This document shows, in pieces, positions 1,236 through 17,213 of a stretch of DNA of 17,788 nt; positions within the stretch are counted from its first letter, which is position 1; every line of letters begins with the position of its first letter. The position numbers and the translations under genes are program-made. The stretch is from a virus (lineage: Duplodnaviria > Heunggongvirae > Uroviricota > Caudoviricetes): the IMG/VR virus record IMGVR_UViG_2870464427_000002. One strand, given 5' to 3'. The notes below the pieces were generated by a model that saw only the letters and a program-made list of their open reading frames with translations, did no database searches and was not told where the DNA came from.

Positions 1236-1939
1236 GGTTGCCAGCCTGTTGAATAATCGTAGTCGAGCACCGCCTGAATATCGTCCAGTGCTTCCACCGC
1301 CGCGATATGACGCTGGGCGTTTGCGAACAAGCGCATATCGTGATCCATGGTGACCGATTCAAACTGGGCAGCGATTTCGTTGGTTAACTCAATCAGACCA
1401 TTATTTTTAGTTTTCCACATTAACCCTGGCGGAATTTTTTTCTCCGCTCCCATTTTTGTGAGTGAAAGCTGTTGGATACGGCTATTTGTATCACTGTGGA
1501 AGTGATGGTTGTTGATGATGATGTAATCGGTTGTGATGGCATCGCGTTGATTTTTGATTGCAGAGTATTTCGCCTCTTTAGCATCGGTTATAGATGGTTG
1601 CCATTTTTCACCATCCCAACGTTCAAAAGAACCTGTCGGGGAAATGACTGTTACATTTTCAGGTAATTGGCCCAATTCTTGAATAATAAGCTGGCTACCA
1701 TCAACTTTGTTATAAACAGTTTGGCCTCGATGATCTTCAATAAGTCTCCATGTTTCATTCTCCCACACTGGAGTAAAACCAGGAGCCTTTTCGGGAGGTG
1801 AAATTAATGTGCAATAATTTGGCAAGCCTGTATTAGGTGCAATGTATGCATCAGACTCACCGATATATTCTTGGGAGTCTTGTGAAAAATTATATACAGT
1901 TAGTATTTGAGCTTCATCAGAAAAGGTAAAAGTATTCAT
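1232..1939 (-). CDS. Tail fibre assembly chaperone, chimeric (lambda Tfa-like N-domain plus DUF4376-like C-domain)
   Basis: 235 aa. The N-terminal part ([25 protein letters not shown] ... [34 protein letters not shown] ... ERWDGEKW) aligns by eye with lambda Tfa-type chaperones. The C-terminal half is a different module. ATGA overlap with the fibre stop. Confidence 0.85.
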
Positions 1940-3516: not shown

Positions 3517-3518
3517 TA

Positions 3519-4235
3519 TTACTCCGGATATACAGACATAATTTCGGTGCTCCAGTATCCTGTGCCGACCTTCATCGGTTGGGATTGTGTAAGGCGATCG
3601 GGTTGATAAGGTAGTAGTTGGATATATTCCTCCACACAATAACCCGTCGCTAAAAATATTCCTGATGACTGGCTGAGGCTTTCTGCAACAGGAGGCAATA
3701 CTGTAATGACTTCCCCTCCTTGCATGGCGCTGCCAATAACTGGTATTGGGCTTCGATTAATAAGCCAAATAACAATGCTTTCCAGCTTTGAACGAACATT
3801 TTTATATTCATGAATTAATGTGATAAGTGCATTGAATTCATCTTCATTTAATCCTTTTTCCTCTAGTGTAATATTTACCTTAAAAAAATAAGCCCTTCCC
3901 CCATATTCAAACCATTCTGAAATAGTTCCGGGTAAGGAAAGTATTTCCAGCACTCGCCGTACCGCCCAAATTGTTCCTTTATATTTATGCAGTTCAATGG
4001 CTTGTTTAATTAACTCGCGTTTCTCCCGCTCATCGGTGGTAAATAACCAACCTTCCAGCCCCTGAACGTGAAATTGTTCTGCAAGGGCTGGTAATGCCGA
4101 AGCATCAACCAGGTCGACCAGATAAACCATCAACGCCGTCAGATCGAGTTGGGCAAAACGCTCGGCGGCGATGTTTGCCAGAATCGAAAAACGCTCATCG
4201 CTGGCAAGCGGCGGCGGTGGCAGCAATTTATCCAT
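3519..4235 (-). CDS. Baseplate/tail protein, P2 gpI-like (Mu gp48 slot), with a C-terminal extension
   Basis: I prefer ATG 4235 ([27 protein letters not shown]..., GGAG 9 nt upstream, 8-nt overlap with the J stop) over the tracked TTG at 4250. The LLPP..L..ER start and the position after J match gpI. At 238 aa it is longer than P2 gpI. Confidence 0.8.
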
Positions 4236-5343
4236 CGCTGACTCCGGCAATCGTGACGTCTATTGCAGTGCATTCCGCCCATTCATGCGCCTGCAAAATA
4301 CGTTTTGTAGGCATATTCAGCGCAACGTCATAGACGCCATCGACCTGTAACACTTTGATTATCTGGTTTGGCACAATGTCCTGCCCCAGATGTTTCTGCC
4401 GCTGTTGCGTCCAGAGGCTAATCGCTTTACGCGCCGCAGCCAGCGTTGTCTCCTGATCGGCGGTGGTAAACAGCATTAGCTGCGCACGGATCTCATACGG
4501 CACTCGAAGAGCGCATTTCGCACTCACTTTGTCGGTCAGCGGTCGTTTTTTCTCCTTGCTGACTTCTTGTTCAATCTGCGCCAGCAACTCCGTGCCGGGT
4601 AGACCATTCAGGGTTAGCGGGTAGATCTCCACGCAGCCTTCTGGCAATCCCTCGTCCGGCCCCAGTACTGCAACGTCAATAATCGACTGGCTAACAGAAA
4701 GCGTATGAAAGCGGTAGGCACCATAGCTGCCCGCATTACTAAAGCTTTCTGGTGCCAGTTGGATACGCTGGCGCAATGCGTCATCGCTCTCTTCACCGCA
4801 GCCGCCCGTTGACGCAGTCAGGTTGGTTACGTTGATGTCATAATGACCAATCCTGTCGACCAGTGCGCTAATTTGTGCAGGCTGCCAGCCGTTACCCTGT
4901 TCACCTGCTGCGAGGCTGGTGGCAGGAACGGCGATATGCAAACTCCTGGCCGGAAGCAGAACATCTTCATCGGTGGCGAACATCACGCTATCAGAGGCAC
5001 TGGCCCGCGTCCCCTGGGGAATCAGGATATTGCCGGGATACGCACTAACGACCGAAAACTGCAACGTCGTTTTTGCAGGCTGCGCAGGCAAACGGTGAAC
5101 TCCCACCAACTCCCCTAAATAATCCAGCATTGGCGCGCGGGAATACGCGACCAGGTTTTGTTTCGCCGCTTCCTGAATGGCGATGCGTACAAGGTTTTCA
5201 CGATAGGCAAACAGGTCGATGAGCAACCGCTCAGCCTGTGCCGGATAGAGTTTTTTACCACTGGCATCTTCGTATTGCGCAATCATCTCACTGGTAATTT
5301 GCGCAGGATCGCGGTCAATAAAATTGGGTTCGGCTATCGCCAT
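4228..5343 (-). CDS. Baseplate wedge protein, P2 gpJ / Mu gp47-like
   Basis: 371 aa. N-terminus FIDRDPAQITSEMIAQYEDASGKKLYPAQAERLLIDLFAYRE is typical of the Baseplate_J family. It overlaps the W stop by 10 nt. Confidence 0.9.
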   Translation of the reverse strand: MAIAEPNFIDRDPAQITSEMIAQYEDASGKKLYPAQAERLLIDLFAYRENLVRIAIQEAAKQNLVAYSRAPMLDYLGELVGVHRLPAQPAKTTLQFSVVSAYPGNILIPQGTRASASDSVMFATDEDVLLPARSLHIAVPATSLAAGEQGNGWQPAQISALVDRIGHYDINVTNLTASTGGCGEESDDALRQRIQLAPESFSNAGSYGAYRFHTLSVSQSIIDVAVLGPDEGLPEGCVEIYPLTLNGLPGTELLAQIEQEVSKEKKRPLTDKVSAKCALRVPYEIRAQLMLFTTADQETTLAAARKAISLWTQQRQKHLGQDIVPNQIIKVLQVDGVYDVALNMPTKRILQAHEWAECTAIDVTIAGVSDG

Positions 5344-5693
5344 AACACCTCCGTTGAGTTGATAACGCCGTCAGCGGCGCGCCATTGCACACGTAACGTC
5401 AGATGTTCGCCGTCGATTACTGGTGTCACCTTCAGCAACCGACAGCGCGGTTCCCACTGGCGGATGGCTTCCACCGACTCCCGTACCACATGCGGGATAG
5501 CCCGCTCGATGGGGTAATCGATGTAGTGCCACAAGTTGCTGCCAAACAGCGGTCTGTGGGGATCACTGCCGCGCGGTGTACGCAGAATGATGTGTATTGC
5601 CTGGTGAATATCATCCAGCCCGCAGACGTATTCTTCAGGCCGCTGCAAGGCCGGTTGCCAGTGCAGCGTTGAGGGGCGTGTTTTTGTGTTCAT
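5334..5693 (-). CDS. Baseplate wedge protein, GPW/gp25 family (P2 gpW-like)
   Basis: 119 aa. GLDDIHQAIHIILRTPRGSDPHRPLFGSNLWHYIDYP aligns with the P2 W core (ILRTP.GSR....YGS). No recognisable Shine-Dalgarno sequence precedes the ATG. Confidence 0.88.
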   Translation of the reverse strand: MNTKTRPSTLHWQPALQRPEEYVCGLDDIHQAIHIILRTPRGSDPHRPLFGSNLWHYIDYPIERAIPHVVRESVEAIRQWEPRCRLLKVTPVIDGEHLTLRVQWRAADGVINSTEVLWR

Positions 5694-5756
5694 GAGGGTA
5701 TTTTCGCCCTGAACGGGCTGTGGAGATATTAAAGCGATTTAGAAAACTGATTGATT

Positions 5757-5786
5757 AAAAAGAGAAAACCCGCCATCAGGCGGGTT
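5757..5786 (-). terminator. Intrinsic terminator inside the tail cluster, between gpV and gpW
   Basis: On the minus strand: AACCCGCC-TGAT-GGCGGGTT followed by TTCTCTTTTT. It starts 5 nt after the gpV stop. Confidence 0.6.
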
Positions 5787-5791
5787 AAAAG

Positions 5792-6493
5792 TCAGTGTGA
5801 ATGGTGGTTGGAGTTGCCACCGCTGTCCTGCAATGCGCCGCTGGCCTGAACGTTGCCGATCACGTTGACATTGCCGGTTATCGTGGCTGCGTTACCGATG
5901 CCTCCACTTCCTGCCATCCCGCCAAGCCAGGTGAGTTTTTTCATTACCGTGACGTTGCCAGTAAAGGTGCTCATGGGCGCATCTACCGTCACTGCTGCTG
6001 CTTTAACCTCGACCTTAGTGGCGTCGATGCTGACATCGGTCGCTTTAACATCGACGGTATCGGAAGTCACGGTGACGTGTTGGGCTTTAATCTCAACGTT
6101 GGGCGATGTCAGGCGGGTGCTGTCGATAACCTCAATCACGATTTTCTCGATACCGCCGTTAATCGTCAGCTGGTGCGTGCTGCGGTCATATTCAAACGCT
6201 GCGCCATCAGAAAACTGGACGTAACGTTTGTCGCGCGAGGCTACAGGCGCGGTGTCAACCGTAGAATAAACGGCACCCAGCACCACGCCATCTTCACCGT
6301 TATCGTCCAGCAGAACTTCCACTTGCTCGCCCATATCCGGTAGCCAGTAGTCTTTATTGTCCTGGGAATTGCGTTGAAGTACCGCAAGCCAGTTGCTCTT
6401 CAGATTGTCACACTCTGGTAGAGTGACCCGTACCCGAACACTGGTTTCGTCAATATCGCTGATAATCCCCGTTTGACGGGTTACTCCTTTCAT
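5792..6493 (-). CDS. Baseplate central spike, P2 gpV / Mu gp45-like
   Basis: 233 aa. The N-terminus is OB-fold-like (GIISDIDETSVRVRVTLPECDNLKSNWLAVLQR). The C-terminus has beta-helix-like repeats (VTVTSDTVDVKATDVSIDATKVEVKAAAVTVDA) and a His-rich tip, NSNHHSH. A strong RBS, AGGAGGAAAT, precedes the ATG. Confidence 0.9.
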   Translation of the reverse strand: MKGVTRQTGIISDIDETSVRVRVTLPECDNLKSNWLAVLQRNSQDNKDYWLPDMGEQVEVLLDDNGEDGVVLGAVYSTVDTAPVASRDKRYVQFSDGAAFEYDRSTHQLTINGGIEKIVIEVIDSTRLTSPNVEIKAQHVTVTSDTVDVKATDVSIDATKVEVKAAAVTVDAPMSTFTGNVTVMKKLTWLGGMAGSGGIGNAATITGNVNVIGNVQASGALQDSGGNSNHHSH

Positions 6494-6502
6494 ATTTCCT
6501 CC

Positions 6503-7543
6503 TTACTGGCTGGTCGCTGGCCCGCGTGACACGTCGATTTCAGTGGTATAGCCGCTGCGCACAAAACTGTGAGTAGATTTATCAATCAGCCACTGACCGG
6601 AAATCACGCCAAAATCGGTCAGTTCAATTTTATTGCCCGCCGTCAGTTCCGGGCAGCCCATCATTGTGAGCGTTCCGGTTTGCTGATATTCGTTGTGGCT
6701 GTCGAGTGCAGCGTTAGCCTTTGCCTGTGCTGCGCCAACGTCCGTCGCCCGACTGTTCAGTTTTAGCGTGTCGGCACTAGTGCCGACTCCACGGACAGAT
6801 GGTTTTTGCTGGCTGTTGTGAGTGTAGATAACCAGTTCTTTTTTCTTACTATTTTGATGCTGTACGGTGGCGTTCTTGTAGATCCGGTTAATGGTGTCTT
6901 TGAAGGTAAAATGAGAAACCTCTTTGCGATCGATCTTTTTCACAGGCGTCAGGCAGCGCAGCGTGGGTAAATGTGAAAAAATCAGCTCTTTTGTCGTCAC
7001 TTTTACGGCATAACCATATTCACTGGCCAGACGTTTGAGAAATCCGACATCGGTTTCACCATACTGCGTTACCCGGTCGATGGTGAGCGACTCGATTTTG
7101 CCCACCAGTTTCAGACCGTGCGTTTGGGCAATACGGCTGGCGATCGCCGAAAGCGTCGTTTCTTCAAAGCCCTGGCTGTTACGGGTGCGCAGCGCCTGAT
7201 TGACGGAAGTGGCGATGCCATCAATATTTACCGTGGAAGGTGGCGCTGAAATATCAATTTTATCAATAATATACTGGCCACAATCGAGCAGCTTTTCCCC
7301 CTGATAACCTATATGCAGCGCCAGCGTATCGCCTTTGCCGGGATACCACTCTTTTATCCAGCGTCCATCTGTGTCATCCAGTGTAATTGCGATGGTATCC
7401 GACTCGTTTTTGATGCTGTCGTGGTAACTGATGCTGGTGACATAGGGTGTGATGTCATAAGTGATATCTTTATGCCCATACCAGAGGGTAAAAATGGGCG
7501 TGAGTGTGGCAAAGACGCCACCAGTTACGCTCATCTCAGCCAT
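6503..7543 (-). CDS. Baseplate hub protein, P2 gpD / Mu gp44 (late control D) family
   Basis: 346 aa. Its position follows X and precedes V. The motifs ETDVGFLKRLASEYGY and the C-terminal GNKIELTDFG...GQWLIDKSTHSF...GYTTEI are typical of the gpD family. Confidence 0.88.
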   Translation of the reverse strand: MAEMSVTGGVFATLTPIFTLWYGHKDITYDITPYVTSISYHDSIKNESDTIAITLDDTDGRWIKEWYPGKGDTLALHIGYQGEKLLDCGQYIIDKIDISAPPSTVNIDGIATSVNQALRTRNSQGFEETTLSAIASRIAQTHGLKLVGKIESLTIDRVTQYGETDVGFLKRLASEYGYAVKVTTKELIFSHLPTLRCLTPVKKIDRKEVSHFTFKDTINRIYKNATVQHQNSKKKELVIYTHNSQQKPSVRGVGTSADTLKLNSRATDVGAAQAKANAALDSHNEYQQTGTLTMMGCPELTAGNKIELTDFGVISGQWLIDKSTHSFVRSGYTTEIDVSRGPATSQ

Positions 7544-7740
7544 GGTGGGATCTCCGATAAGGTTTTATTAACGGAAATGACCGGAATAATGAGCTGAATA
7601 CCGGAAGGCAGTACCGGGTAAATGGCTACATGTGGATTGGCGGCGATTATGCGTTCATAAGCCAGCGCATCACCGTAGTAATGCCATGCCAGGTTATCCC
7701 AGCGTTCGCCATCGGTGGTGATATGTTCAAGGTATCGCAT
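7531..7740 (-). CDS. Tail protein X (P2 gpX-like, LysM-like)
   Basis: 69 aa. TTDGERWDNLAWHYYGDALAYERIIAANPHV...LPSGIQLIIPVI matches the gpX pattern. TAATG overlap with the upstream gene. Confidence 0.85.
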   Translation of the reverse strand: MRYLEHITTDGERWDNLAWHYYGDALAYERIIAANPHVAIYPVLPSGIQLIIPVISVNKTLSEIPPWLR

Positions 7741-8693
7741 TACCAGCTCCTGGTAATGGTTACGGCAGCAAGCTGGCTCACTGCGGGAGTGGTTTGTTGT
7801 ACCGTTGTACGTGCCTGCTCAACCAACGACGTGGCTTTATCGAACGTCGCTTCGGCGATGTCGCTGGTAATGTCGTCGAAAAGCGCCTGAGCATGGTCAA
7901 CCAGCGTACTGGCGTCATTGGCGCAGTCCCGGATACCTGGCATGTTACCCAGTAAAGCTTTAATCTGCGCCGACAACGCTTTTGGTAGGCCTGCCAGCGT
8001 TTGCAGATCCATTGGCTGTTTAAACAGGGTTTCGATGGCGTCGATTGTCTTTTTCAATGACGTAATTATCTTTTCACACTTTTCTTTTAACGCTTTGGCC
8101 TCTTTAATCATTGCTTTCACTTTTGCCACCGTTTTTTTAATATCTTCAATGGATTGTGTCAGTTCATCCAGCATCTCTTTGGCCTTACGCATACCTTCTT
8201 CAATGGCGTTTAATATCTGATCAAACCAGGACTCCACCTTGTCGGGAAAATCGCTCGCCTTTTCCTCGATGTTGGGCTCCTGGGTGGTAATCGCCGGAGG
8301 TAAAAGTGGATTTTTAGGATCGCCGGTGTACTCCTGGAGCGACATCGTTCCGTTTTGGGCAATCACATTGCCCCAGGGATCGGTGTGCTGGTGGGTGGCG
8401 GTTAGCTCCGTAATCACAAACCAGCCGCGATAATCGCCATTGCCAAATACCAGTGCCATCGCCTTGTGAGCAAGCATGGCTTCACGCAGTCGGTTCAGCT
8501 CTGTTGTGGGCTGGCAAAACTGGCTGTGCAGGGAAAATTCCAGCGCCAGCATATCCAGCTTATCGCCAATAAACTGCACGCCGGGTTTGCCTTCTATACG
8601 GGCATGTGTGGCGTAATCCACGCCCATTGTGCTTTTAAAGCCGTCCCAGAATGTGACAACCTTAAATTCAATCTCTCCTAAAACGGCATACAT
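7740..8693 (-). CDS. gpU-like tail protein fused to a ~190-aa coiled-coil extension (occupies the Mu N/gp43 slot)
   Basis: The first ~125 aa (MYAVLGEIEFKVV...THARIEGKPGVQFIGDKLDMLALEFSLH...GNGDYRGWFVITELTATH) resemble P2 gpU. The rest is a K/E-rich helical repeat (MRKAKEMLDELTQSIEDIKKTVAKVKAMIKEAKALKEKCEKIITSLKKTIDAIE...). TAATG overlap with the tape-measure stop. Confidence 0.75.
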   Translation of the reverse strand: MYAVLGEIEFKVVTFWDGFKSTMGVDYATHARIEGKPGVQFIGDKLDMLALEFSLHSQFCQPTTELNRLREAMLAHKAMALVFGNGDYRGWFVITELTATHQHTDPWGNVIAQNGTMSLQEYTGDPKNPLLPPAITTQEPNIEEKASDFPDKVESWFDQILNAIEEGMRKAKEMLDELTQSIEDIKKTVAKVKAMIKEAKALKEKCEKIITSLKKTIDAIETLFKQPMDLQTLAGLPKALSAQIKALLGNMPGIRDCANDASTLVDHAQALFDDITSDIAEATFDKATSLVEQARTTVQQTTPAVSQLAAVTITRSW

Positions 8694-11068
8694 TAGGCAT
8701 ACCCCCGGCGCTGCTGCTGCGCCATTACATCGTTAATCATTCTTTCCAGTTCGCGTTTACTCATCGTCAACACGTTCTGAATCTCTTTAGTGGTGTTTTG
8801 TCCGTTACCCTGCACGGTAATTTGTGGCGAAAAATTCACCTGAACTTTTCCTGAGGAACGGGAAGGTAGCGTCGCCGCTTTGGTTACGGATTTACCAGGT
8901 AAAGAGGCAGATACGGGTTTGGCGGCTGTATTTTTTGCCGCTGGCGCCGATGACGGCGTAGCCGTTTTGCCGGATGGCGCGAGTTGTTTGCCCACCGGCG
9001 GCGTTAAAATCGCACCGGCAACGCCTGGAACAACGGTCGCGGGGGAGACGGATGCGGTATTAGTCGTGCTTGTAATAGCTGTAGCCGATCCTTCTGTACT
9101 AATACCCATCGTGGTTTTTAGCCAGTCTGGGATGGCGTTTTTTACCTGATCAATAATGCCTTTCAGAGCGGGGAAGGCATTCATTATGCCGTCAACCAGA
9201 CTGCCCAGAAGATTGCTGCCGAACTCGCTAAAACTTGCAGGCATCTCGACACCAAACCAATTCATCACACTGGAAAAGGCGCTATAGAACAACTCCAGCG
9301 GTGACCAGTCGAGAATCAACCGACAAATTCCTGCAATGCCGCCGTCAAAGGCCGTGGTGATACGTTGCCAGATGGTCGAAAAGAACCTGGAGATAGGCTC
9401 CCAGTTGCGATAAATCAGATAAGCAGCGCCCGCAATCGCAGTGATGACCAGACCAATGGGATTCATCAGTAGCACCCGGCCTAGTGAGAGAACGGTCCGA
9501 CCAACCAGTTTCAATGTTCCAATCAGGCCACGACCAAGCAGTTGCGTTAGCCATTTTGCGCCGCCACCCAATGACTTAACCGCTGATAGCATCTTACTTG
9601 CCCCGCCTGTGAGCGCCAGACTTGCCTTGACTTTCAGGAAGATATCGACCAGACGAATAAACGGCGAGGTGATGAGGTTCGCGCCCAGCTTTAAAACATT
9701 CAGCGCACCGTTAAACAGCCAAATCGCCCCGACGATTTTCGCGATGTTTTGCACCAGTGTCGGGTGCTCACGTAGCCAGGCGCTGAACTGACGAATAACC
9801 GGCGTAAGGCTTTGTGCCAGCTCGCCAATCAGCGGCATTAATTGCAAGCCAATGCTGAGCCATAAATCATTTAACGCCAGCTGTAACGCTTTAGTCTGTT
9901 CAATGGGCGAGGCCATTTGCGCAGAAAAGTCGGCATCAATCAGATTCTTGCTGGTGGCTTGCATGGCAGAGGCTTTTAACTGGCGATATTCCTCCATATT
10001 CGCCAGCATAGGGGCCAGGAATTCCACTGTTTGCGCATCGCCGAACATTTCCCCCAGATTAAACTGCGTCACCATCGATTGCAGCGCATTGCTGCGGGCA
10101 GATAAATCTTCGATCTGCATGGTGCGTTTGAAGGTGTCGAGGATCGCCGGATTCATCTTCTCAAGCTGCATTTGCACGATATGAGTCATGGCTTCGCTAA
10201 CACCCATACCGTTTTGCTGATGCTCAAGCAGAGAGCCTTGCAGATCAACGCCCTGGCTGACGAACCAGTAATCGGTTTTTTTCGAAAAGGTGGTTTGCAG
10301 AAAGTGGTCGAAATTCTCCGCCGCCGCACTGGCGCTGGCCCCGTTTTTCATGGCGATCTGCATGGTGGCGGTCAGTTCAGCCATACCTTCCAGACCCTGA
10401 GCGCCGGTTTTACCTGCAAATTTCTCTATCCACTGCGTTTGTTCAGCAATGGCAGGCCCACCGCTTTTGCTAATGCCGTACATCATGTTTTGCGCGGCGT
10501 GGAAATTTTCCGGGGCAATATTCAGTCGATCATGGGTTGCGAGCGCGGCATTCGCCCATGTTTCAGCACTTTCGCGCGTGGCGGTGGCAGCTTTGGCGAT
10601 CTCCGGCATATAACGGTTGAGATCCTGTATCGACGACAAATTGCCTTCGATCAGCGTTTGGGCTGCGTTCTGTAAGGTGGTCTGCTGCTGGTTAAAATCC
10701 ATGCTCCAGTCGCGCAGATTAAGGCTGAGCGTCTCGCGGGTTGTAGCATTCATCCCACCTTTGGTCGCCATATTGACCATGTTGTCCTGAAACTCATACG
10801 GCAACTTCCAGTCGGGGGCTTCAACATTGAATACTTTGCTAAATTGCCCGGCAAATGTTTGGGTTTTCTCCATCAGATTAGCGCGGCTGCGGCTATTTTC
10901 CTCCAGGCGGAGAGCGGAATCGGCAAGCTGCTGCGTTAGTTTGATAACTGTCGCCTGCTGAGTAGAGAGAGTTAACAATGTTCTGGCGTTGAGTGAGCCG
11001 TAACGGGCTATTGCCTGCGTCAACGTCTCATTACGCGCCTGAAGCTGGGTAATAATATCGTTGGCCAA
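8693..11068 (-). CDS. Tail tape measure protein
   Basis: 791 aa. Helical N-terminal half, a cluster of hydrophobic segments at about residue 400-640, and an Ala/Pro/Ser/Thr-rich linker near the C-terminus. It sits after the chaperone gene. The only available start is TTG 11068, because a stop lies 4 codons upstream, and the SD (AGAGAA) is weak. Confidence 0.88.
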   Translation of the reverse strand: MANDIITQLQARNETLTQAIARYGSLNARTLLTLSTQQATVIKLTQQLADSALRLEENSRSRANLMEKTQTFAGQFSKVFNVEAPDWKLPYEFQDNMVNMATKGGMNATTRETLSLNLRDWSMDFNQQQTTLQNAAQTLIEGNLSSIQDLNRYMPEIAKAATATRESAETWANAALATHDRLNIAPENFHAAQNMMYGISKSGGPAIAEQTQWIEKFAGKTGAQGLEGMAELTATMQIAMKNGASASAAAENFDHFLQTTFSKKTDYWFVSQGVDLQGSLLEHQQNGMGVSEAMTHIVQMQLEKMNPAILDTFKRTMQIEDLSARSNALQSMVTQFNLGEMFGDAQTVEFLAPMLANMEEYRQLKASAMQATSKNLIDADFSAQMASPIEQTKALQLALNDLWLSIGLQLMPLIGELAQSLTPVIRQFSAWLREHPTLVQNIAKIVGAIWLFNGALNVLKLGANLITSPFIRLVDIFLKVKASLALTGGASKMLSAVKSLGGGAKWLTQLLGRGLIGTLKLVGRTVLSLGRVLLMNPIGLVITAIAGAAYLIYRNWEPISRFFSTIWQRITTAFDGGIAGICRLILDWSPLELFYSAFSSVMNWFGVEMPASFSEFGSNLLGSLVDGIMNAFPALKGIIDQVKNAIPDWLKTTMGISTEGSATAITSTTNTASVSPATVVPGVAGAILTPPVGKQLAPSGKTATPSSAPAAKNTAAKPVSASLPGKSVTKAATLPSRSSGKVQVNFSPQITVQGNGQNTTKEIQNVLTMSKRELERMINDVMAQQQRRGYA

Positions 11069-11158
11069 AATTGTTTCTCTTTAAATATTGATAATGGCCC
11101 GCTGGTTATTTTTCTAAAAAAAGGGGCAGGGAAGAAATAAACCTGACGGGCTTGGGAA

Positions 11159-11183
11159 ACTCGCAGACATCAGGTCTGCGAGT
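11159..11183 (-). other. Perfect 10-bp stem-loop in the chaperone-to-tape-measure spacer
   Basis: ACTCGCAGAC / 5-nt loop / GTCTGCGAGT. The UGA that closes the E'-like frame lies in the loop. No proper U-tract follows. Confidence 0.5.
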
Positions 11184-11391
11184 CATATTCGATTTTTATT
11201 TGGGCGCTGGCTTCATCCAGCCAGTTGCTAAAGTCATCGACGGTAAGGGCGTCTATCTCACTGGGTGGAAAGCGAAACCATCTCGCCAGTAACGCCATCG
11301 CTTGCCATAACAGTGGCGGATTCTGTAGCCACGCTAAGCATGGATTGAAATCGTTTCTGCAATGCCTGGTAATCCAGCAAATCCATTTCAG
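11170..11391 (-). CDS. E'-like extension frame of the tail chaperone, reachable only by a +1 (= -2) frameshift
   Basis: A stop-free frame of 73 codons plus its stop, with no useful start codon. It overlaps the last 134 nt of the gpE-like gene and continues 88 nt beyond it, encoding ...PPSEIDALTVDDFSNWLDEASAQIKIEYDSQT. The span from 11575 to 11170 is 406 nt (3n+1). Confidence 0.5.
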   Translation of the reverse strand: MKWICWITRHCRNDFNPCLAWLQNPPLLWQAMALLARWFRFPPSEIDALTVDDFSNWLDEASAQIKIEYDSQT

Positions 11392-11575
11392 CTAAATCTT
11401 CTGGCACCAGTCCGGTCATTGCCGCCATTAGCGGTTCATCCCACTCTTCAGGTTTTTCGCTGATCCGGCGCGCGTTGCGCATATCTTTTACTTTCAGGCG
11501 ACGTAATTGCAGAGTGTTAATTACGTCTCCCGCCGCTGAAGTAAACGGGAACTGTAAGATATAATGTTCTTTCAT
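11258..11575 (-). CDS. Tail assembly chaperone, P2 gpE-like
   Basis: 105 aa sitting between the tube and tape-measure genes. FPFTSAAGDVINTLQLRRLKVKDMRNARRIS...LVPEDLAEMDLLDYQALQKRF fits the gpE/gp41 chaperone family. RBS is AAGGA. Confidence 0.8.
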   Translation of the reverse strand: MKEHYILQFPFTSAAGDVINTLQLRRLKVKDMRNARRISEKPEEWDEPLMAAMTGLVPEDLAEMDLLDYQALQKRFQSMLSVATESATVMASDGVTGEMVSLSTQ

Positions 11576-11601
11576 TTTGTGTCCTTATTTATTTTGCAAA
11601 G

Positions 11602-11621
11602 TTCGGGGCCGTAGCCCCGAA
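11602..11621 (-). terminator. Stem-loop between the tube and chaperone genes (weak terminator or attenuator)
   Basis: TTCGGGGC / 4-nt loop / GCCCCGAA. On the minus strand it is followed only by CTTTGC, so termination is probably partial at most. Confidence 0.4.
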
Positions 11622-11625
11622 TAAC

Positions 11626-12150
11626 TTAGCCACCGATGTTATTGCGATAGGTACTTAATTGATCCACACCATTAACCCGGAAAATATTGGCCATATAATC
11701 AAGTTCAAGCAGCGTTTCACCATCAACTACTTGTTTAATATAAGTGCAACCAAAGGCGCTGCTGAATTCCGGGTTTTCATTCTGTTTAAATGTGCCCAGT
11801 GGATTCTTTTTAAACATCACGGTTAAATGTGTCACTAGCGCTAATTGATTCGCTTTCCCCTGGGAGTTATAGCAATCAATACTGGAGCGGCACTGTAATG
11901 CAACCGCCTGCCACGGGTTTGCCGTTTTACGCATTACGTCCTGATAGAAGGAGTTCCATTTAATTTCGCCCTCCAGTTTATCGAAACCCGCCGGGAGTTC
12001 GATTTTACCCACCATGCCCAGTGCTTTATGCTCCTGCATAATTAAACTGACATCCGGCAATTTAATTTCGGTTGCACGACCTAAAAGGTTATTACCATCG
12101 AGATAAATATTGGCGTTGGTAATACGGTTAATTTGAATTTTTCCAGCCAT
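11626..12150 (-). CDS. Tail tube protein (P2 FII-like)
   Basis: 174 aa directly after the sheath gene (TAATG overlap). ITNANIYLDGNNLLGRATEIKLPDV...GMVGKIELPAGFDKLEGEIKWNSF matches the contractile-tail tube family. Confidence 0.9.
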   Translation of the reverse strand: MAGKIQINRITNANIYLDGNNLLGRATEIKLPDVSLIMQEHKALGMVGKIELPAGFDKLEGEIKWNSFYQDVMRKTANPWQAVALQCRSSIDCYNSQGKANQLALVTHLTVMFKKNPLGTFKQNENPEFSSAFGCTYIKQVVDGETLLELDYMANIFRVNGVDQLSTYRNNIGG

Positions 12151-13573
12151 TAGCTATTGCTCTCCAGAGAGACTAAATATTCAGAAGTAATTTCAGTTTC
12201 AAACGTCAGACGTTCCAGCGGCGGCGGCGGGGTGAATTTATAGCTCAGCAATAAATGCCCAGCGCTGAGTTCAGTCGGTGAATTTCGCGCCGGATCGTAC
12301 CAGCATTCAAAGCCAAGCAGTGCGCCGTCGGCAATCAGCTTACGGCCCCAGGTATTTACCGATTCGGTCAGGGCATCAATCAGCGCCTGATTAATCGGCA
12401 TATCAATATACTGCTGACTGAAATAACGGATTGACTCATTAATTACATCGCCTGTCCGGCGGACGTTTTCAAAGTTACGCATATGGGTCACGGTAGGCCA
12501 CGCTGCAGTGCGGTTGCCCCACAAGCGCAGACCAGAGCCGTAACTATTGAAAATAGTGGTAATGCCGTTTTCGTTTAGCTGATTCACTTCGCTTTGTGGA
12601 TCATCAATCATTGCGGAAAGCGAACGTTCAATACCGGTAATACCCTGAATTTCTTGGTTTGAGTTGCTCCACCAGAAACCTTTTTCGAGGTCTACTTTGG
12701 CACGTAGCCCGGCAGCGCGCGAAGAGAGCGGTTCGAGAACTTCCTGGTTAGTGATGCCATCGTAAACTTTGACGTGTGGGTAACATAAACGCGCACGATC
12801 AGAGCTGGTGTTGAAGTTGATAGCCCCTTGCGAACCGCGTCCTGCCAATACCTGCTGGAATGTCGTCCCAATCGGGGCATCAATGTAGGTAATCGCACCA
12901 AGTTTTTCCGCTTGTGCAATCAGCTCTGTAGTTACTGATTTTTGCGTACAGAACACGGGAGCAAGCAGGATTTTGGCGTAGAAACCATACAGGTTATAGG
13001 TGTCCTGTAGCAGTTTCATCCCCGTGCGGTCGCCTGCGGTATTTACGGTACCGATAATATCGGCTGCGGTGACCTTTGTAGGGTCGCACCAGGAATAATA
13101 GGCACAAACTTTCGCACCAGGAGGAATGTCGGCTCCTTTACGGGTAATTATGCCTGTTTGTTCATCTACGCTAAATGCTGCGGTGTTAAAGGTTGATGAA
13201 TTTGATGAAGAGGGCTTTAGTACCACGTTACGCACATTGCGGTGAGCGAGCTTCGCCTGGTTGTTAGCATCAAAAGTGATACTCTCATTGCTGATGTTGG
13301 AGCCATGTTTTGCCGGATCCAGCACGTTAATCACCACCACCGTACCGGCACCGTGGTCATAAATTGCCTTCAGTGCCTGTGGGATCGTAAAGTTAGCCTG
13401 AGTCGAGCCAAACTGCGCAGCATCGCTTTCAGAAAGGCATAATGTTGGTTTATTTACCGGACCGCAGGGGCTGTACCGATTAAAGCGATGACGGCGGATT
13501 TTACCGCTTTAACCGGACGCGGGCCGGTTTCAATTTCAATAGTTTCTACACCGTGCAGATAATTAGCTGCCAT
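12150..13573 (-). pseudogene. Tail sheath gene (P2 FI / Mu L family) broken by a 1-nt frameshift
   Basis: ATG 13573 opens MAANYLHGVETIEIETGPRPVKAVKSAVIALIGTAPAVR*, with the stop at 13454-13456. The sheath sequence continues in the -1 frame as PCGPVNKPTLCLSESDAAQFG...VVVINVLDP down to 12150. One extra C in the C4 run (plus-strand GGGG, 13467-13470) restores a 474-aa ORF. Confidence 0.8.
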
Positions 13574-13760
13574 GTACAATTTCCTCTACGTTATTTTGTT
13601 CTTCCTGAGTGATGACAGGAGTCAGATGATTGCGGGCAATCATGGTCATGACCCACTCGTTGTCTTCTGGCAGATCAATTTCACTGTTCGGCCACAATAA
13701 GATTTCTTGTCCATCGGCAAGGGTGACGCCGCTTGCTGGGCCGTTGTAGATGTATTTCAT
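13563..13760 (-). CDS. Small tail-associated protein (Mu-like gp38 / DUF2635-type slot)
   Basis: 65 aa. ATGA overlap with the upstream gene, and its end overlaps the sheath start by 11 nt. Size and position match the small ORF that precedes the sheath gene in Mu-like tails. Family recall is from memory only. Confidence 0.55.
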   Translation of the reverse strand: MKYIYNGPASGVTLADGQEILLWPNSEIDLPEDNEWVMTMIARNHLTPVITQEEQNNVEEIVHGS

Positions 13761-14212
13761 TCAGTTTCCTCGTAGTTAACTTCCGTAAGCAGGGGAAGAT
13801 CCGTGCTTTCCTGTTCAGCGATAAATAGCGAGCTGGTCGCCATTTCCAGGATGTAGCGGCAGAAACCGCCGCTCTCACCCGTATTAATTTCTTTTTCAAG
13901 CCAAAGAAGACGATCGCAATCAGGAAGCTGAAGGCCACCCAATGCGCTGCGTATGTGATCAAGTGCGTTTAATGCATCACAATTTTTGCCAACAATAACG
14001 GTGGCGGTTAAGCGGAGTATTTGCTGTTGCACGATGGCATTACTGCTTTCGGGCGTAGCAAAGACAGAACCGCTATAATTAATAATCACTGCAACTCGTT
14101 GTGTCTGTGGAATATATTTCTGGGCATCCTTAGATGAAATAAATATATCCATTTCGGAGTTGTGTTCACGTAATCTGGTCACAACAGAATTCATTACAGA
14201 TAAAATTTCCAT
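13757..14212 (-). CDS. Tail completion/terminator-like protein (Mu-like gp37 / DUF1834-type slot); first gene of the tail operon
   Basis: 151 aa. It is the first ORF after a strong terminator and a promoter-like region. The N-terminus ILSVMNSVVTRLRE resembles gp37-family starts. The assignment rests on position plus a weak pattern match. Confidence 0.5.
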   Translation of the reverse strand: MEILSVMNSVVTRLREHNSEMDIFISSKDAQKYIPQTQRVAVIINYSGSVFATPESSNAIVQQQILRLTATVIVGKNCDALNALDHIRSALGGLQLPDCDRLLWLEKEINTGESGGFCRYILEMATSSLFIAEQESTDLPLLTEVNYEETE

Positions 14213-14275
14213 ATAGGCTGTACCTTAATTACCGCTCACTTCGTTATCGTTGAAATGTATTCTGAAGCAGCGAAG

Positions 14276-14284
14276 GTGAAGAAT
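14276..14284 (-). promoter_or_regulatory. ATTCTTCAC motif upstream of the tail operon (candidate activator-dependent promoter element)
   Basis: The identical 9-mer occurs upstream of the lysis operon at 15627-15635. Here TCTTCA-N17-TACATT gives a poor -35 and a fair -10. ATTAAAAG lies immediately 5' of the motif. Confidence 0.3.
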
Positions 14285-14319
14285 CTTTTAATGTGATTTA
14301 GAGAAAAAATTGAATGGTT

Positions 14320-14353
14320 AAAAAAATCCCCACCCTTACATAAGGGTGGGGAT
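14320..14353 (-). terminator. Strong intrinsic terminator separating the lysis cassette from the tail operon
   Basis: On the minus strand: ATCCCCACCC-TTATGTAA-GGGTGGGGAT followed by TTTTTT. It starts 3 nt after the stop of the 104-aa gene. A T-run is also present on the plus strand, so it could act in both directions. Confidence 0.8.
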
Positions 14354-14356
14354 TTT

Positions 14357-14671
14357 TCAATAACTGCCACGTTGTAACAGCTCGATTTTGCTATATAAGG
14401 CATCCAGCTTCGCTTCTAATACTGCTTGCCCACGAAGATAATCTTCTCTGCGGACATAATGCAGCGGAAGCTCGGCACGAAATTCGAGAAATTCTCTTTC
14501 CAGTTTCGACCAACTTGTTTCTGATTCCCGGCGCGCGTTTTCCAGAGATTCAAAACGCTCATTAAGTCGTTTTTCAATTTGTGCTAACAGCAGTTTTCCG
14601 GCAGCAAACATTAATCCAACGAAGGAAAGCATAAGGGAGATCACTTCCCAAAAATCGATACTGAGTTTCAT
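14357..14671 (-). CDS. N-terminal TM plus coiled-coil lysis accessory protein (i-spanin-like or Mu gp25/DUF2730-like)
   Basis: 104 aa. One TM segment (WEVISLMLSFVGLMFAAGKLLL) followed by heptad-like helices (IEKRLNERFESLENARRESE...LEAKLDALYSKIELL). RBS is AGAGGGG. It is the third gene of the lysis cassette. Confidence 0.55.
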   Translation of the reverse strand: MKLSIDFWEVISLMLSFVGLMFAAGKLLLAQIEKRLNERFESLENARRESETSWSKLEREFLEFRAELPLHYVRREDYLRGQAVLEAKLDALYSKIELLQRGSY

Positions 14672-14683
14672 CGGCCCCTCTGA

Positions 14684-15289
14684 TTAATGAAGACAGCTTG
14701 CCTGTCCCCAGAGTAAATAGCGGGCGGCATGTTGATAGAGGATCATCTTTGGATAGCGACGATTTTCTCGCCAGTTCGTGGCGCTGCGCCCGGCGTTGAC
14801 TTGCTCAACATGACCAAACCAGCTAGTGGCATCTAACCCTTTGGATGCAGCCAGTTTTTTATCCCGGTTAACCCACCCCTGACCGCCGTTATAGGCGCTT
14901 AGGGTAAACGCCATACGCTGACAATCATTTTTCGCAGAGATGTTTTTCCACAAATGCTGGTCATATTGCACCAGCGCGCGAATCGCCCAGGTTGGGTTAT
15001 ACGGTTTGTTTTCACGCAATTGTGGATACAACTGGCTTATCCATGTCGCTGTAGCAGGCATAAATTGCGCCATACCTTGTGCGCCAACGGGGGAACGTAC
15101 CATTGGCTGCCAGGCGGACTCCTGGTGTAATTGCCCGGCAAAGTCGGCCACTGGGGCATTCAGCCCCCAGACTTCTCGAGCTGTACGAATTAGTTCGTTT
15201 CGCCATGCCAGAGAGGCTCTCGGCGGTTCAGAGGCGTTGAGTGGGAAAAGAACGAAAATAATCATAGACGCGATATATTTCAGCCACAT
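14684..15289 (-). CDS. Lytic transglycosylase (SLT domain) endolysin with an N-terminal signal or signal-anchor
   Basis: I prefer ATG 15289 (MWLKYIASMIIFVLFPLNASEPP...), 2 nt after the upstream stop. The tracked start at 15388 overlaps the holin-like gene. SLT motif: LHQESAWQP...GAQGMAQFMP.TA...SAYNGG. Confidence 0.85.
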   Translation of the reverse strand: MWLKYIASMIIFVLFPLNASEPPRASLAWRNELIRTAREVWGLNAPVADFAGQLHQESAWQPMVRSPVGAQGMAQFMPATATWISQLYPQLRENKPYNPTWAIRALVQYDQHLWKNISAKNDCQRMAFTLSAYNGGQGWVNRDKKLAASKGLDATSWFGHVEQVNAGRSATNWRENRRYPKMILYQHAARYLLWGQASCLH

Positions 15290-15291
15290 CA

Positions 15292-15579
15292 CTATAGCCC
15301 TAACGCGACGGAAAGGCAGACGGCAGCAACGATGATAGCCCGGCGAATCATTGCCGCCGCGCAGCAACGCGGTTCCTTCCAGGGGCAAAAAGAGTCAGGC
15401 CGTGCCCAGGGGAACAAACTGCGATCGAGCCAGTATCCCAGCACCGCGGAAAGCGAAACCAGGCTTAGTTTATAAATGACGACCGGGATTTGTGCTGAAG
15501 AGGTCCAGCCGATCACGACAAACAGCGCGACGGAAGCGACCAGCCAACCGGAAAGCCGGGGAAGAGTGACTTTTTTCAT
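15292..15579 (-). CDS. Small three-TM membrane protein, putative holin
   Basis: 95 aa with three hydrophobic segments (WLVASVALFVVIGW; IPVVIYKLSLVSLSAVLGYWL; AIIVAAVCLSVALGL). It is the first gene of the cassette, immediately upstream of the endolysin. RBS is AGGAG. Confidence 0.5.
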   Translation of the reverse strand: MKKVTLPRLSGWLVASVALFVVIGWTSSAQIPVVIYKLSLVSLSAVLGYWLDRSLFPWARPDSFCPWKEPRCCAAAMIRRAIIVAAVCLSVALGL

Positions 15580-15626
15580 ACGGTATCTCCTGATAAGTGA
15601 GCGTTTAGTGTCGCCAGAACCCGCCA

Positions 15627-15635
15627 GTGAAGAAT
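15627..15635 (-). promoter_or_regulatory. ATTCTTCAC motif upstream of the lysis operon (candidate activator-dependent promoter element)
   Basis: Same 9-mer as at 14276-14284, lying 48 nt upstream of the holin-like ATG. ATTAAAG lies 8 nt further 5'. Confidence 0.3.
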
Positions 15636-15853
15636 GAAAAAAGCTTTAATAAATAAGTTTAAAAAATAGATTCTCTATAAATGAACATGCCCGCTAATAA
15701 ATCCACTCAGCAATTAAAGAGCAAAAGGTGACCTCGCGAATAAGCGCGTCATTATGCAGGGAAAAGATGATGGTGAATCGTAGGAATAGTCAGTAGTTAT
15801 TTGATTTTTAAAGTTTGTTTAAGAAAGTCAGCGACTGTGAGGGAAACGATCTT

Positions 15854-15881
15854 TTTACACTACAAGTAAAAATAATACTGT
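15854..15881 (+). promoter_or_regulatory. Candidate rightward sigma70 promoter overlapping the left SOS half-site
   Basis: TTTACA (15854-15859), a 16-nt spacer, then TACTGT (15876-15881). The -10 candidate is the left arm of the reconstructed LexA box. In the present state it points into the IS. Confidence 0.3.
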
Positions 15882-15889
15882 ATGTGTAT
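15876..15889. promoter_or_regulatory. Left half of an IS-split LexA (SOS) box
   Basis: TACTGT+ATGTGTAT directly abuts the IS left end. Confidence 0.7.
15882..15889. repeat. Target-site duplication, left copy (ATGTGTAT)
   Basis: Identical 8-mer at 17206-17213, immediately outside both inverted repeats. Confidence 0.85.
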
Positions 15890-15919
15890 GGGTCTTCCCT
15901 TGTTGTGGTGGCTGAAGGC
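15890..15919. repeat. IS left inverted repeat
   Basis: GGGTCTTCCCTTGTTGTGGTGGCTGAAGGC, compared with the reverse complement of the right end, GGGTCTTCCCCGATCATGGTGGGAAGGC. The first 10 nt are identical and the TGGTGG and GAAGGC blocks are shared. Confidence 0.8.
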
Positions 15920-15956
15920 ATGATAATGGTGTATTTAATCGCCAGAGGTCACCGCC

Positions 15957-17177
15957 ATGGACGAAAAGTCCCTCTACGCTCATATTCTCAACCTGTCCGA
16001 TCCGTGGCAGGTAAAGTCCCTTTCTCTCGATGAAAATGCCGGTTCTGTTACTGTCACTATTGAGATCGCTGAAAACACCCGGCTAGCCTGTCCGACCTGC
16101 GGTAAATCCTGTTCTGTTCACGATCACCGTCATCGTAAATGGCGCCATCTTGATACCTGCCAGTTCACCACTATTGTTGAAGCCGATGTTCCACGAATTA
16201 TGTGTCCGGAGCATGGCTGCCTGACGTTGCCTGTTCCGTGGGCTGGCCCCGGAAGCCGGTATACGTTGCTATTCGAATCGTTCGTTCTCTCATGGCTGAA
16301 AATCAGCACCGTTGATGCTGTCAGGAAGCAACTTAAGCTCAGTTGGAATGCGGTTGACGGCATTATGACCCGGGCAGTTAAGCGAGGTCTTGCCCGGATA
16401 AAAAAGCCATTATCCGCCCGTCATATGAATGTGGATGAGGTCGCCTTTAAAAAAGGACATCGTTACATAACGGTGATCTCCGATCGCGATGGTCGGGCGC
16501 TGGCCTTAACGGATGATCGCGGCACAGAGAGTCTTGCCGGCTATCTTCGCACGCTCACTGATGGGCAGTTGCTGGCTATCAAAACGCTCTCAATGGACAT
16601 GAACGCGGGCTATATAAGAGCAGCGCGTATCCACTTACCCAGTGCGGTTGAGAAAATCGCCTTTGACCGCTTCCATGTGGCGAAGCAACTGGGCGAGGTA
16701 GTTGATAAAACCCGTCAGAATGAACATCCGCACCTCCCTGTTGAAAGCCGACACCAGGCAAAAGGAACCCGCTTCCTGTGGCAGTACAGCGATAAGTGGA
16801 TGACCGAATCCCGGCAGGAAAAGCTGATGTGGCTGCGTGCACAGATGAAGCTGACGAGCCAGTGCTGGGCGCTGAAAGAGCTGGCAAAGGATATCTGGAA
16901 CAGGCCATGGAGCGAGGAAAGACGGAGTGACTGGCAGAGATGGTTGGCGCTGGCGGCTAACAGTGACGTTCCCATGATGAAAAATGCCGCGAAAACGATA
17001 GGAAAAAGGCTGTACGGGATCCTGAATGCGATGCGACACAGTGTCTCAAACGGAAATGCGGAGGCACTTAACAGCAAGATCAGGCTGCTGAGGATAAAAG
17101 CCAGGGGATACCGAAACCGGGAGCGCTTTAAACTGGGGGTGATGTTCCACTACGGAAAGCTGAATATGGCGTTCTGA
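15957..17177 (+). CDS. ISL3-family transposase
   Basis: 406 aa. N-terminal zinc-finger (CPTCGKSCSVHDHRHRKWRHLD), a DDE_Tnp_ISL3-type core (MNVDEVAFKKGHRYITVISD) and the C-terminal GNAEALNSKIRLLRIKARGYRNRERF. The stop lies just inside the right inverted repeat. Confidence 0.9.
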   Translation: MDEKSLYAHILNLSDPWQVKSLSLDENAGSVTVTIEIAENTRLACPTCGKSCSVHDHRHRKWRHLDTCQFTTIVEADVPRIMCPEHGCLTLPVPWAGPGSRYTLLFESFVLSWLKISTVDAVRKQLKLSWNAVDGIMTRAVKRGLARIKKPLSARHMNVDEVAFKKGHRYITVISDRDGRALALTDDRGTESLAGYLRTLTDGQLLAIKTLSMDMNAGYIRAARIHLPSAVEKIAFDRFHVAKQLGEVVDKTRQNEHPHLPVESRHQAKGTRFLWQYSDKWMTESRQEKLMWLRAQMKLTSQCWALKELAKDIWNRPWSEERRSDWQRWLALAANSDVPMMKNAAKTIGKRLYGILNAMRHSVSNGNAEALNSKIRLLRIKARGYRNRERFKLGVMFHYGKLNMAF

Positions 17178-17205
17178 GCCTTCCCACCATGATCGGGGAA
17201 GACCC
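17178..17205. repeat. IS right inverted repeat
   Basis: GCCTTCCCACCATGATCGGGGAAGACCC, the reverse-complement partner of 15890-15919. Confidence 0.8.
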
Positions 17206-17213
17206 ATGTGTAT
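17206..17213. repeat. Target-site duplication, right copy (ATGTGTAT)
   Basis: Identical to 15882-15889. Confidence 0.85.

Follow-up and report, generated by a model that had tools for sequence, protein, structure and literature searches.

The 17,788-nt viral record IMGVR_UViG_2870464427_000002 (the window, by which we mean the whole stretch of DNA analyzed here) carries a minus-strand cluster of phage tail and lysis genes and, divergent from it, a gene for a Mor-family activator. The window matches the chromosome of Escherichia coli EC0585 at 100% identity, and at least 80% of it is present in 115 of 5426 complete E. coli genomes. In an intact copy, found in strain MRY15-117 (locus L001 of our comparison), the cluster is flanked by yjbD, slipin, and nucleotidyltransferase genes and by lysC, and we refer to the cluster together with mor as the island. 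We consider it probable that the genes of the cluster are transcribed from three sigma-70 promoters, each with a -10 hexamer but without a -35 element, and each dependent on the island's own Mor-family activator.

A tail-only island with a single regulator

The cluster comprises a lysis unit, a second unit running from gp37 to gpV, and a third unit that begins with gpW (Table 1). Its sheath, tube, tape measure, baseplate, and fiber genes, combined with a holin and SLT lysis cassette, make up the gene set of an R-type tailocin, and its Gp37 belongs to the BcepMu gp37 family, relatives of which are present in complete Bcepmuviruses. Between yjbD and lysC, Pfam searches and RefSeq annotation revealed no capsid, terminase, transposase, or integrase genes, a later insertion sequence (IS) aside, and neither source gave head, replication, transposition, repressor, or early genes in the island. 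The Mor-family gene is its sole regulator. The cluster appears to be a tail-only derivative of a Bcepmuvirus (BcepMu-like and Mu-related) with the makeup of an R-type tailocin.

An orthologous island is present in Salmonella, as the LT2 genes STM4198-STM4219, and E. coli K-12 does not have the island. A literature search found no description of the regulation of the yjbD-lysC island and no report of particle production or killing by it, and the papers that name STM42xx genes are limited to expression or mutant lists. A paper on an ST131 "tailocin" was rejected as an account of the island, as it describes a P2-like prophage, a different element. The BceTMilo paper makes no mention of Mor, and an Rfam search of the window returned no known RNA family.

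Table 1. Genes and predicted regulatory features of the island, in window coordinates
Feature	Position	Strand	Description
Unit 3	780..5693	-	gpW, J, I, tail fiber, DUF4376/tail-fiber-assembly protein, 151-aa open reading frame (ORF); Pfam, RefSeq
Predicted -10, P_W	5700..5705	-	GAAAAT, then ACCCTC (6 nt), then gpW ATG at 5693
Mor-type box, P_W	5727..5742	-	CTAAATCGCTTTAATA = TCTAA-ATCGCT-TTAAT
T2, predicted intrinsic terminator between gpV and gpW	5757..5786	-	consensus scan and folding
Unit 2, gp37 to gpV	5792..14212	-	gp37, small ORF, sheath, tube, gpE, tape measure, U, X, D, V; Pfam, RefSeq
Predicted -10, P_gp37	14259..14264	-	CAGAAT
Mor-type box, P_gp37	14286..14301	-	CTAAATCACATTAAAA = TCTAA-ATCACA-TTAAA
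T1, predicted intrinsic terminator after lysis cassette	14321..14358	-	17-bp stem, -26.9 kcal/mol, z -6.2
Lysis unit	14357..15579	-	Pfam Holin_2-3 and SLT; RefSeq annotation of the intact copy agrees
Membrane protein of lysis unit	14357-14671	-	
SLT lytic transglycosylase	14684-15289	-	Pfam SLT
Holin	15292-15579	-	Pfam Holin_2-3
Predicted -10, P_holin	15607..15612	-	GACACT; starts 36 nt after the T of TAAAGC
Conserved block 5' of holin gene	15627..15667	-	ATTTTTTAAACTTATTTATTAAAGCTTTTTTCATTCTTCAC
Split LexA box	left part 15876..15889; right part 17206-17219		comparison with L001
ISL3-family IS, ISKox3-like	15890..17205	+	RefSeq; Pfam DDE_Tnp_ISL3 and associated HTH and zinc-ribbon domains
Mor-family activator gene, 115 aa	17441..17788	+	divergent from cluster; Pfam PF08765, 129 bits (cut-off 24.9)

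A conserved box in fixed register with a -10 hexamer

To describe the promoters we compared 26 island loci from about six lineages (E. coli, Salmonella, and others), in which Gp37 is 54-100% identical to that of the query. The orthologues were drawn from contigs encoding Gp37, from scans of metagenome and viral contigs, and from annotated records. The conserved element is an A/T-rich imperfect dyad, TCTAA-N6-TTAA(A/T), in which the T of TAAA(G/T)C lies exactly 36 nt 5' of a -10 hexamer of the form nAnnnT. At the -35 positions stand AAGATT, TATCTC, and ATTCTT, none of them a -35 element. The pattern CTAAA(T/G)C-N3-TTAA(A/T)A has two matches in the window, at the gp37 and W boxes, compared to 0.02 expected. 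Across the 26 loci it matches before gp37 and W wherever these regions were captured; the exception named is Salmonella, whose gp37 box narrowly misses the degenerate pattern, and two loci have an additional, overlapping match at the W site.

The regions upstream of gp37 and W align without any gap in all sequences, in the order T-rich tract, box, 20 freely varying nt, and hexamer. From -49 to -33 the invariant fraction is 0.82 for both promoters, compared to 0.05 (gp37) and 0.25 (W) from -32 to -13, and within the -10 hexamers the A at -11 and the T at -7 are invariant in every sequence. We scored sites with a position weight matrix (PWM) in two versions, trained either on the gp37 and W sites or on the W sites alone, against the null maximum. 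With the first version the gp37 and W sites reach 29-35 bits and are the sole strong hits in each cluster (95th percentile of the null maximum, about 16), and with the second the gp37 site is the best non-self hit in the E. coli cluster, at 17.8 bits. No gpE promoter of the phage type was found in the island by the PWM scans. In ungapped comparisons of positions -62 to -1 with the -10 in register, gp37 matches W, and W matches holin, at 34 of 62 positions (0 of 20000 shuffles in each case), and gp37 matches holin at 25 (623 of 20000 shuffles).

The same architecture is found in complete phages. The four top hits of the W-only PWM in PhiKM lie exactly before the lysis cassette, the head protease/scaffold gene (the equivalent of Mu I), gpW, and gpE, all on the coding strand, with 16.9-22.4 bits compared to 15.7 for the 95th percentile of the null maximum. 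In BcepMu, CTAAAGCCGATTAAAAGAC precedes the holin gene, the same box precedes the protease gene, and related boxes precede gpW and gp41. When three tailocin, five PhiKM, and four BcepMu promoters and Mu Pm are taken together, an nAnnnT hexamer stands in register in 13 of 13, where the background is 0.03-0.06 per position. Our first choice of -10, AATAC(N), anchored on "ATAC", was discarded: its sixth position varied and locus L026 broke the pattern, and the alignment with PhiKM and BcepMu places the conserved hexamer 3 nt 5' of it. A literature search found no published description of Bcepmuvirus late promoters, although that search did not cover the original BcepMu paper (Summer et al. 2004).

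Two side observations concern the phages. A fifth PhiKM box, with an in-register CATCAT, lies at about 30864 of the record on the minus strand, 5' of a DNA adenine methylase (Dam) gene, a placement that parallels the C-dependent mom promoter (Pmom) of Mu. In BcepMu gp32 (L029 18830-18860), the annotated head-protease start, ATGATG..., overlaps the predicted -10 GATGAT and an in-frame ATG lies at the predicted +2, for which reasons the true start may be 12 nt downstream and the mRNA nearly leaderless.

These results bear on an initial annotation of the window, which had proposed a different assignment of promoter elements. It described related sequence blocks after each of two terminators, and this holds: its gapped alignment gives 31 matches, and the ungapped in-register alignment is better. 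It further proposed that the 9-mer ATTCTTCAC, or TCT(T/C)CAC, forms a weak -35 (TCTTCA; TTCTTCAC at gp37), with TACATT or CACTAA as the -10 and a TTC(A/T)G element nearby. The 9-mer does occur exactly twice in the window (14276-14284 and 15627-15635; 0.10 expected), (A/G)TTCTTC is found 5' of the holin gene in all lineages, and Mu bases just 3' of the Mor/C site are reported to be important (PMC2582627). Yet 5' of gp37 only the E. coli-type lineage has the motif, with AATCCTAAC, ACTCACCTT, or ACGCCTGAT at its position elsewhere, and its register differs by 3 nt between the two promoters, being -32 to -24 in gp37 and -35 to -27 in holin. Neither TCTTCA, TACATT, CACTAA, nor TTC(A/T)G is conserved across lineages, whereas the hexamers CAnAAT and GAyAyT, 3-4 nt upstream of the proposed -10s, are. 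We regard this assignment as hardly probable at all, and the 9-mer as a recurring sequence that is not the functional element. What is conserved in the orthologous clusters is the box and its spacing, in place of the 9-mer and hexamers first proposed.

The gp37 promoter

The gp37 box scores 35 bits compared to a null maximum of 21, is unchanged across lineages, and has a T-rich tract directly upstream (14302-14310). It is nearly identical to the head-protease box of PhiKM and to the holin and protease boxes of BcepMu. The -10 reads CA(A/G/T)(A/T)AT in every lineage (CAGAAT, CAAAAT, CAATAT, or CATAAT), and the predicted +1 near 14252 would put about 40 nt of leader before the ATG at 14212. The PhiKM head-protease promoter TTTTCTAAAGCAGATTAAAATCG, with leader GACAACATAACG, almost matches the tailocin gp37 promoter with leader CAACGATAACGAAG. 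Because promoter and leader are so nearly identical, the gp37 promoter appears to be the ancestral head-operon promoter (the head-protease promoter, of Mu P_I type), which became joined to gp37 as the head genes disappeared.

At the start of the predicted gp37 leader stands a conserved GAAC(G/T)AT(A/G)(A/G)CG(A/G)AG. In the non-E. coli lineages it also contains a short hairpin, with stems GGAGAG...CTCTCC, GAGAGA...TCTCTC, and GAAGGAAG...CTTC (L002 9940-9990, L003 5440-5490, L004 19740-19790, and L026); the E. coli lineage lacks this hairpin.

The gpW promoter and a possible leaderless start

The W box, at 31-35 bits, is unchanged across lineages, including Salmonella, where it lies downstream of a gtrABC insert, and in other lineages the box forms the perfect palindrome TTAAAGCGCTTTAA. 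The sequence GGCGAAAATA at this promoter is identical in all lineages. Transcription is predicted to start on the A of the gpW ATG, which would account for the missing Shine-Dalgarno (SD) sequence of gpW and suggests that gpW is made from a leaderless mRNA. The arrangement of a -10, 6 nt, and ATG recurs in PhiKM (AATACT GCCCCC ATG) and BcepMu (CAACAT GGCCGC ATG). The absence of an SD and the closeness of the conserved block to the ATG had been listed as caveats in the initial annotation, and both fit this conserved geometry.

An inverted repeat surrounds the gpW -10 (window 5693-5720; L002; L009; PhiKM, L027 at about 17250-17275; BcepMu, L029 at about 30800-30826), with arms AGGG/CCCT, GAGGC/GCCTC, TAGGG/CCCTA, GGGGGC/GCCCCC, and GCGGC/GCCGC. 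In a read-through RNA the extended stem would pair with the UG of the gpW AUG and with the second codon, which is impossible in a transcript that starts at the AUG. The extended stem has -6.4 to -18.1 kcal/mol in the six sequences that form it, with z from -1.4 to -4.0 over all seven.

The holin promoter

Upstream of the holin gene, a block of about 40 bp is almost unchanged in all lineages. Its promoter-proximal TAAAGC (15643-15648), with the T at predicted position -48, is in the same register as at gp37 and W, and a second TAAA lies 13 nt upstream of it. Across lineages the -10 reads GACACT, GATACT, AATACT, or GATATT (nAnAnT). A predicted +1 near 15600 would leave a 21-nt leader with the SD AGGAG before the ATG at 15579. 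The holin promoter appears to be a related but atypical variant with an overlapping pair of sites; that it gives the lysis genes a higher activation threshold is only a guess.

Two hairpins between the units

Both T1 and T2 have a G+C-rich stem followed by a U-tract on the transcribed strand, as intrinsic terminators are defined, and we predict that they terminate transcription. The two hairpin-plus-U terminators of the initial annotation are thus supported by folding (-26.9 and -15.3 kcal/mol) and by hairpins at the same places in orthologous loci. T1 is symmetric, with an A-run on its 5' side and a U-run on its 3' side, and its U7 run pairs partly with the upstream A-run. Hairpins with differing inner-stem sequences occupy the same position in L002, L003, L004, and L026. 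The stem of T2 (5767-5786) has 8 G+C pairs, -15.3 kcal/mol, and z -5.0, and its U-tract, UUUUCUCUUUUU, reaches 5757. T2 is kept in all non-Salmonella lineages with a variable loop and is absent from the V-W regions of PhiKM and BcepMu.

Where T1 is lacking in E. coli variants, the Mor box directly follows the stop codon of the membrane-protein gene, and L019 has an additional insert of about 120 bp 5' of T1. In Salmonella (L004 7968-11292, Infantis; STM4204-4206), a gtrABC O-antigen glucosylation operon lies exactly between gpV and the gpW box, co-directional with them, with copies of a 45-bp REP-like repeat, GGCCCGGTAAGCGCAGAAGCGCCACCGGGC, near both ends of the insert. Since this operon is inserted there, the V-W gap appears to be an insertion point for a cargo operon ("moron").

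The mor gene and the LexA box upstream of it

The Pfam match bears out the earlier recognition of a divergent Mor-like gene, which is parted from the cluster by the ISL3-family insertion. The island Mor is closer to Mu Mor (1rr7, E 5e-8, the best Protein Data Bank match) than to Mu C (E 7e-5) and is 44% identical to the sole Mor/C homologue of PhiKM. The recognition helices read TLQWIYKIVKR in the tailocin, SLQWVYSVVKR in PhiKM, and SLQWIYKIIKA in BcepMu gp01.

An alternative is that the box is bound by a host protein (IHF, Fis, H-NS, or alpha-CTD, the C-terminal domain of RNA polymerase's alpha subunit, with the box as an UP element) or by some other factor, and that Mor acts elsewhere or is idle. 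The box is A/T-rich with T-tract flanks, as UP elements and sites for nucleoid proteins are, the holin block is conserved over about 40 bp, beyond the need of a single dimer, and other conserved blocks lie near the LexA box. Nevertheless, the box is nearly the same in a high-G+C Burkholderia phage and in E. coli, so that its similarity tracks the near-identical Mor recognition helix and not the host. Its half-sites, spacer, and position also agree with those of the mapped Mu Mor operator (PMC4390567), and an UP element would have no -35 to assist here. We find this alternative very improbable and favor Mor as the protein that would bind the box.

In L001 an unsplit LexA box, TACTGTATGTGTATACAGTA, lies at 27877-27896 and is near-consensus, and CTGT-N8-ACAG is found 221-246 nt 5' of the mor ATG in every locus with a complete holin-mor spacer. 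In undamaged copies the LexA box upstream of mor is likely to provide SOS induction of the cascade. In the window the IS splits the box, with an 8-bp target duplication, ATGTGTAT, at 15882-15889 and 17206-17213 (junctions mapped against L001). The IS lies in the middle of the LexA box, and mor is therefore cut off from whatever lies upstream.

Two more conserved blocks lie beside the LexA box (window 15801-15856; minus-strand reading AAAAAGATCGTTTCCCTCAC ... CTTTCTTAAACAAACTTTAAAAATCAA). One resembles a Mor box read towards mor (TTTTTAAAGTTTGTTTAAG), with AACGAT 36 nt downstream. As a fourth Mor site ("site 4", at about 15801-15827) it was rejected, as L026 lacks it and its half-site spacing ranges over 6-8 bp among lineages. 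The second block, GTGAGGGAAACGATC, contains one GATC, and the Salmonella version three. These blocks might reflect positive autoregulation or another factor.

State of the copy in the window

The sheath gene (12150-13573) has a 1-nt deletion in a G-run at about 13467-13471 relative to otherwise identical copies, including L001, and the deletion shifts the reading frame beyond the N-terminal part; this may be a genuine mutation or an error in sequencing the homopolymer. With the LexA box split by the IS and the sheath gene frameshifted, this copy is probably inert. This condition, together with the RefSeq flag of an incomplete fiber gene and the small number of complete E. coli genomes that hold most of the window, is what one would expect if the blocks were inherited fossils of phage late promoters in a decaying remnant, read, if at all, by read-through or from unrelated promoters. 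Fossils, in contrast, would drift as the 20-nt spacer does (5-25% invariant), and the boxes, their spacing, A-11, and T-7 stay fixed in lineages between which Gp37 identity is only 54-62%. Moreover, all tail, lysis, and mor ORFs are undamaged in L001, L002, L004, and L009. We judge decay to be quite unlikely as an explanation of the blocks and return to promoters that depend on Mor.

Other features of the window lie apart from these promoters. The tail-fiber ORF (1936-3639) is open here, with 567 aa and collar and fiber-repeat domains, but for the same sequence in MRY15-117 RefSeq gives two pseudogene fragments, both incomplete. The C-terminal part of the fiber gene and the assembly genes downstream have a G+C content of 0.42-0.44, below that of the rest of the cluster. 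The plus-strand flanking gene (1-765), outside the tail cluster, encodes an RlaP-family nucleotidyltransferase (RNA repair pathway, DNA polymerase beta-like); in the intact locus it adjoins the slipin gene, and a strong terminator follows it at 753-775.

Discussion

We propose that Mor binds the imperfect dyad TCTAA-N6-TTAA(A/T), in which TAAA(G/T)C begins 36 nt upstream of the -10, and that the T-rich tract just 5' of the dyad could serve the alpha-CTD of RNA polymerase. P_holin would drive the lysis genes, P_gp37 the genes from gp37 through gpV, and P_W those from gpW through the fiber genes, on a leaderless mRNA. The two terminators would insulate the units, and in undamaged copies the LexA box 5' of mor would place the cascade under SOS induction. 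The initial annotation had already suggested activation of three units by a Mor/C-type protein; comparative evidence supports this core, although the details of its motif did not hold and the division into three units is not universal.

Several observations weigh against our interpretation. The downstream half-site of the holin box is degenerate (TTTCA), and the site scores only about 14 bits by PWM, in reverse orientation only, below the chance maximum. A candidate promoter, TTGACA-16-CAATAT, lies 3' of the LexA box, and sequence alone assigns LexA no promoter. A transcription start on the gpW ATG needs leaderless translation, which is uncommon in E. coli, and the inverted repeat around the W -10, which can pair with the AUG in a read-through RNA, hints that RNA crosses T2. 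The copy in the window is damaged, with an IS in its regulatory region and a frameshift in the sheath gene. T1 is absent in four of the 26 loci (L008, L016, L017, and L022), which represent two distinct sequence variants, and T2 is truncated in Salmonella, where the 5' hairpin arm alone is left. Finally, the promoters, their activation, and the terminators are predictions from DNA sequence and its comparison. Given the four loci without T1 and the crippled T2 of Salmonella, the split into three units appears not to be universal, and strict separation not to be essential. The four loci without T1 keep the box, and Salmonella has a truncated T2, which suggests that the terminators are dispensable and the boxes are not.

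A broader scheme, which we offer tentatively and consider rather doubtful, is that of a domesticated tailocin whose late program is run by one Mor-type activator directly behind a host LexA box, with a possible Mor-like site for positive feedback. The three promoters would be graded, with holin last, and the gpW-fiber operon would be translated solely from the leaderless transcript, because read-through RNA would mask the gpW AUG in a hairpin whose design would be conserved from a Burkholderia phage to E. coli.

The predicted wiring, from LexA box to mor to three Mor-box promoters, is testable in an enterobacterial phage-tail island. Plasmid-borne mor should turn on the whole cluster in strains with an undamaged copy, which offers a route to testing tailocin activity. 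The comparison would also extend the Mu Mor operator to the whole genus Bcepmuvirus and to a tail-only derivative, with operator sequence and spacing conserved across very different hosts together with the recognition helix.

Comparison with known systems

The nearest relatives are the Bcepmuviruses BcepMu and PhiKM, which have homologous tail and lysis genes in the same order and boxes before the lysis, head-protease, and gpW genes. The island differs in that it has no gpE promoter, has a V-W terminator, and has a diverged holin promoter.

R-type pyocins of Pseudomonas aeruginosa are likewise chromosomal tail-only clusters with a lysis cassette and a positive regulator triggered by DNA damage (PMC5411513). 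Their regulation (RecA, PrtR, PrtN, and the P-box) involves another activator family and operator, and their tail is P2-like, whereas that of the island is of Bcepmuvirus type. The island has no PrtR-like repressor; instead, a host LexA box appears directly before the activator gene.

P2 and 186 share with the island the P2-type tail genes (V, W, J, I, H, FI, FII, E, T, U, and D) and several activator-dependent late operons without a -35. The Ogr site is TGT-N12-ACA, from which the island box differs, and no Ogr-type zinc-finger gene was found by Pfam among the ORFs scanned. We rejected control of the Ogr type (Ogr/B/Delta) and of the PrtN type, as the ORFs scanned include no corresponding regulator gene.

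The closest mapped promoter is Mu Pm. Its Mor site spans 16 bp, with two 5-bp inverted repeats and a G/C-rich hexamer spacer, centered at -43.5, and the promoter has a -10, no -35, and an A/T-rich proximal UP subsite at -57 to -52 (PMC4390567). In the Mu sequence the operator reads AGTAA-AGCCGG-TTAAT and, as in the island, 36 nt separate the T of the box from the -10; we checked the numbering against -57G, -56T, and -55 to -53 AAA given in PMC4390567. Mu Pm and the gp37 and W boxes of the island share the form xxTAA-N6-TTAAx, with the same half-sites and 6-bp spacer, and these two island dyads are centered near -42/-43 (about -42.5) on the predicted +1. Like the island promoters, Mu Pm lacks a -35, has an A/T-rich tract directly upstream, and has an adjacent terminator hairpin. 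Mu C binds a similar 16-bp imperfect dyad, centered at -43.5, at four late promoters with a -10 and no -35 (PMC2582627). By inspection, no TAAAGC-N3-TTAA box lies upstream of Mu Plys, which suggests that the island boxes are of the Mor type and not of the C type.

The island Mor is distant from Mu Mor (a match of 64 residues, E 5e-8), and its gene is solitary, with a LexA box before it, and does not close the early operon of a transposable phage. Mu Mor acts at one promoter and hands over to C for the four late promoters, whereas in the island and the Bcepmuviruses one protein of the Mor/C family appears to act at every late promoter. As with Plys, PI, PP, and Pmom, the late promoters of Mu, one activator would thus govern several late operons, for lysis, head, tail, and DNA modification. 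Mor-dependent promoters are a known design, proposed here in a new setting; they are to be expected in a Mu-like element and constitute a refinement more than a surprise.

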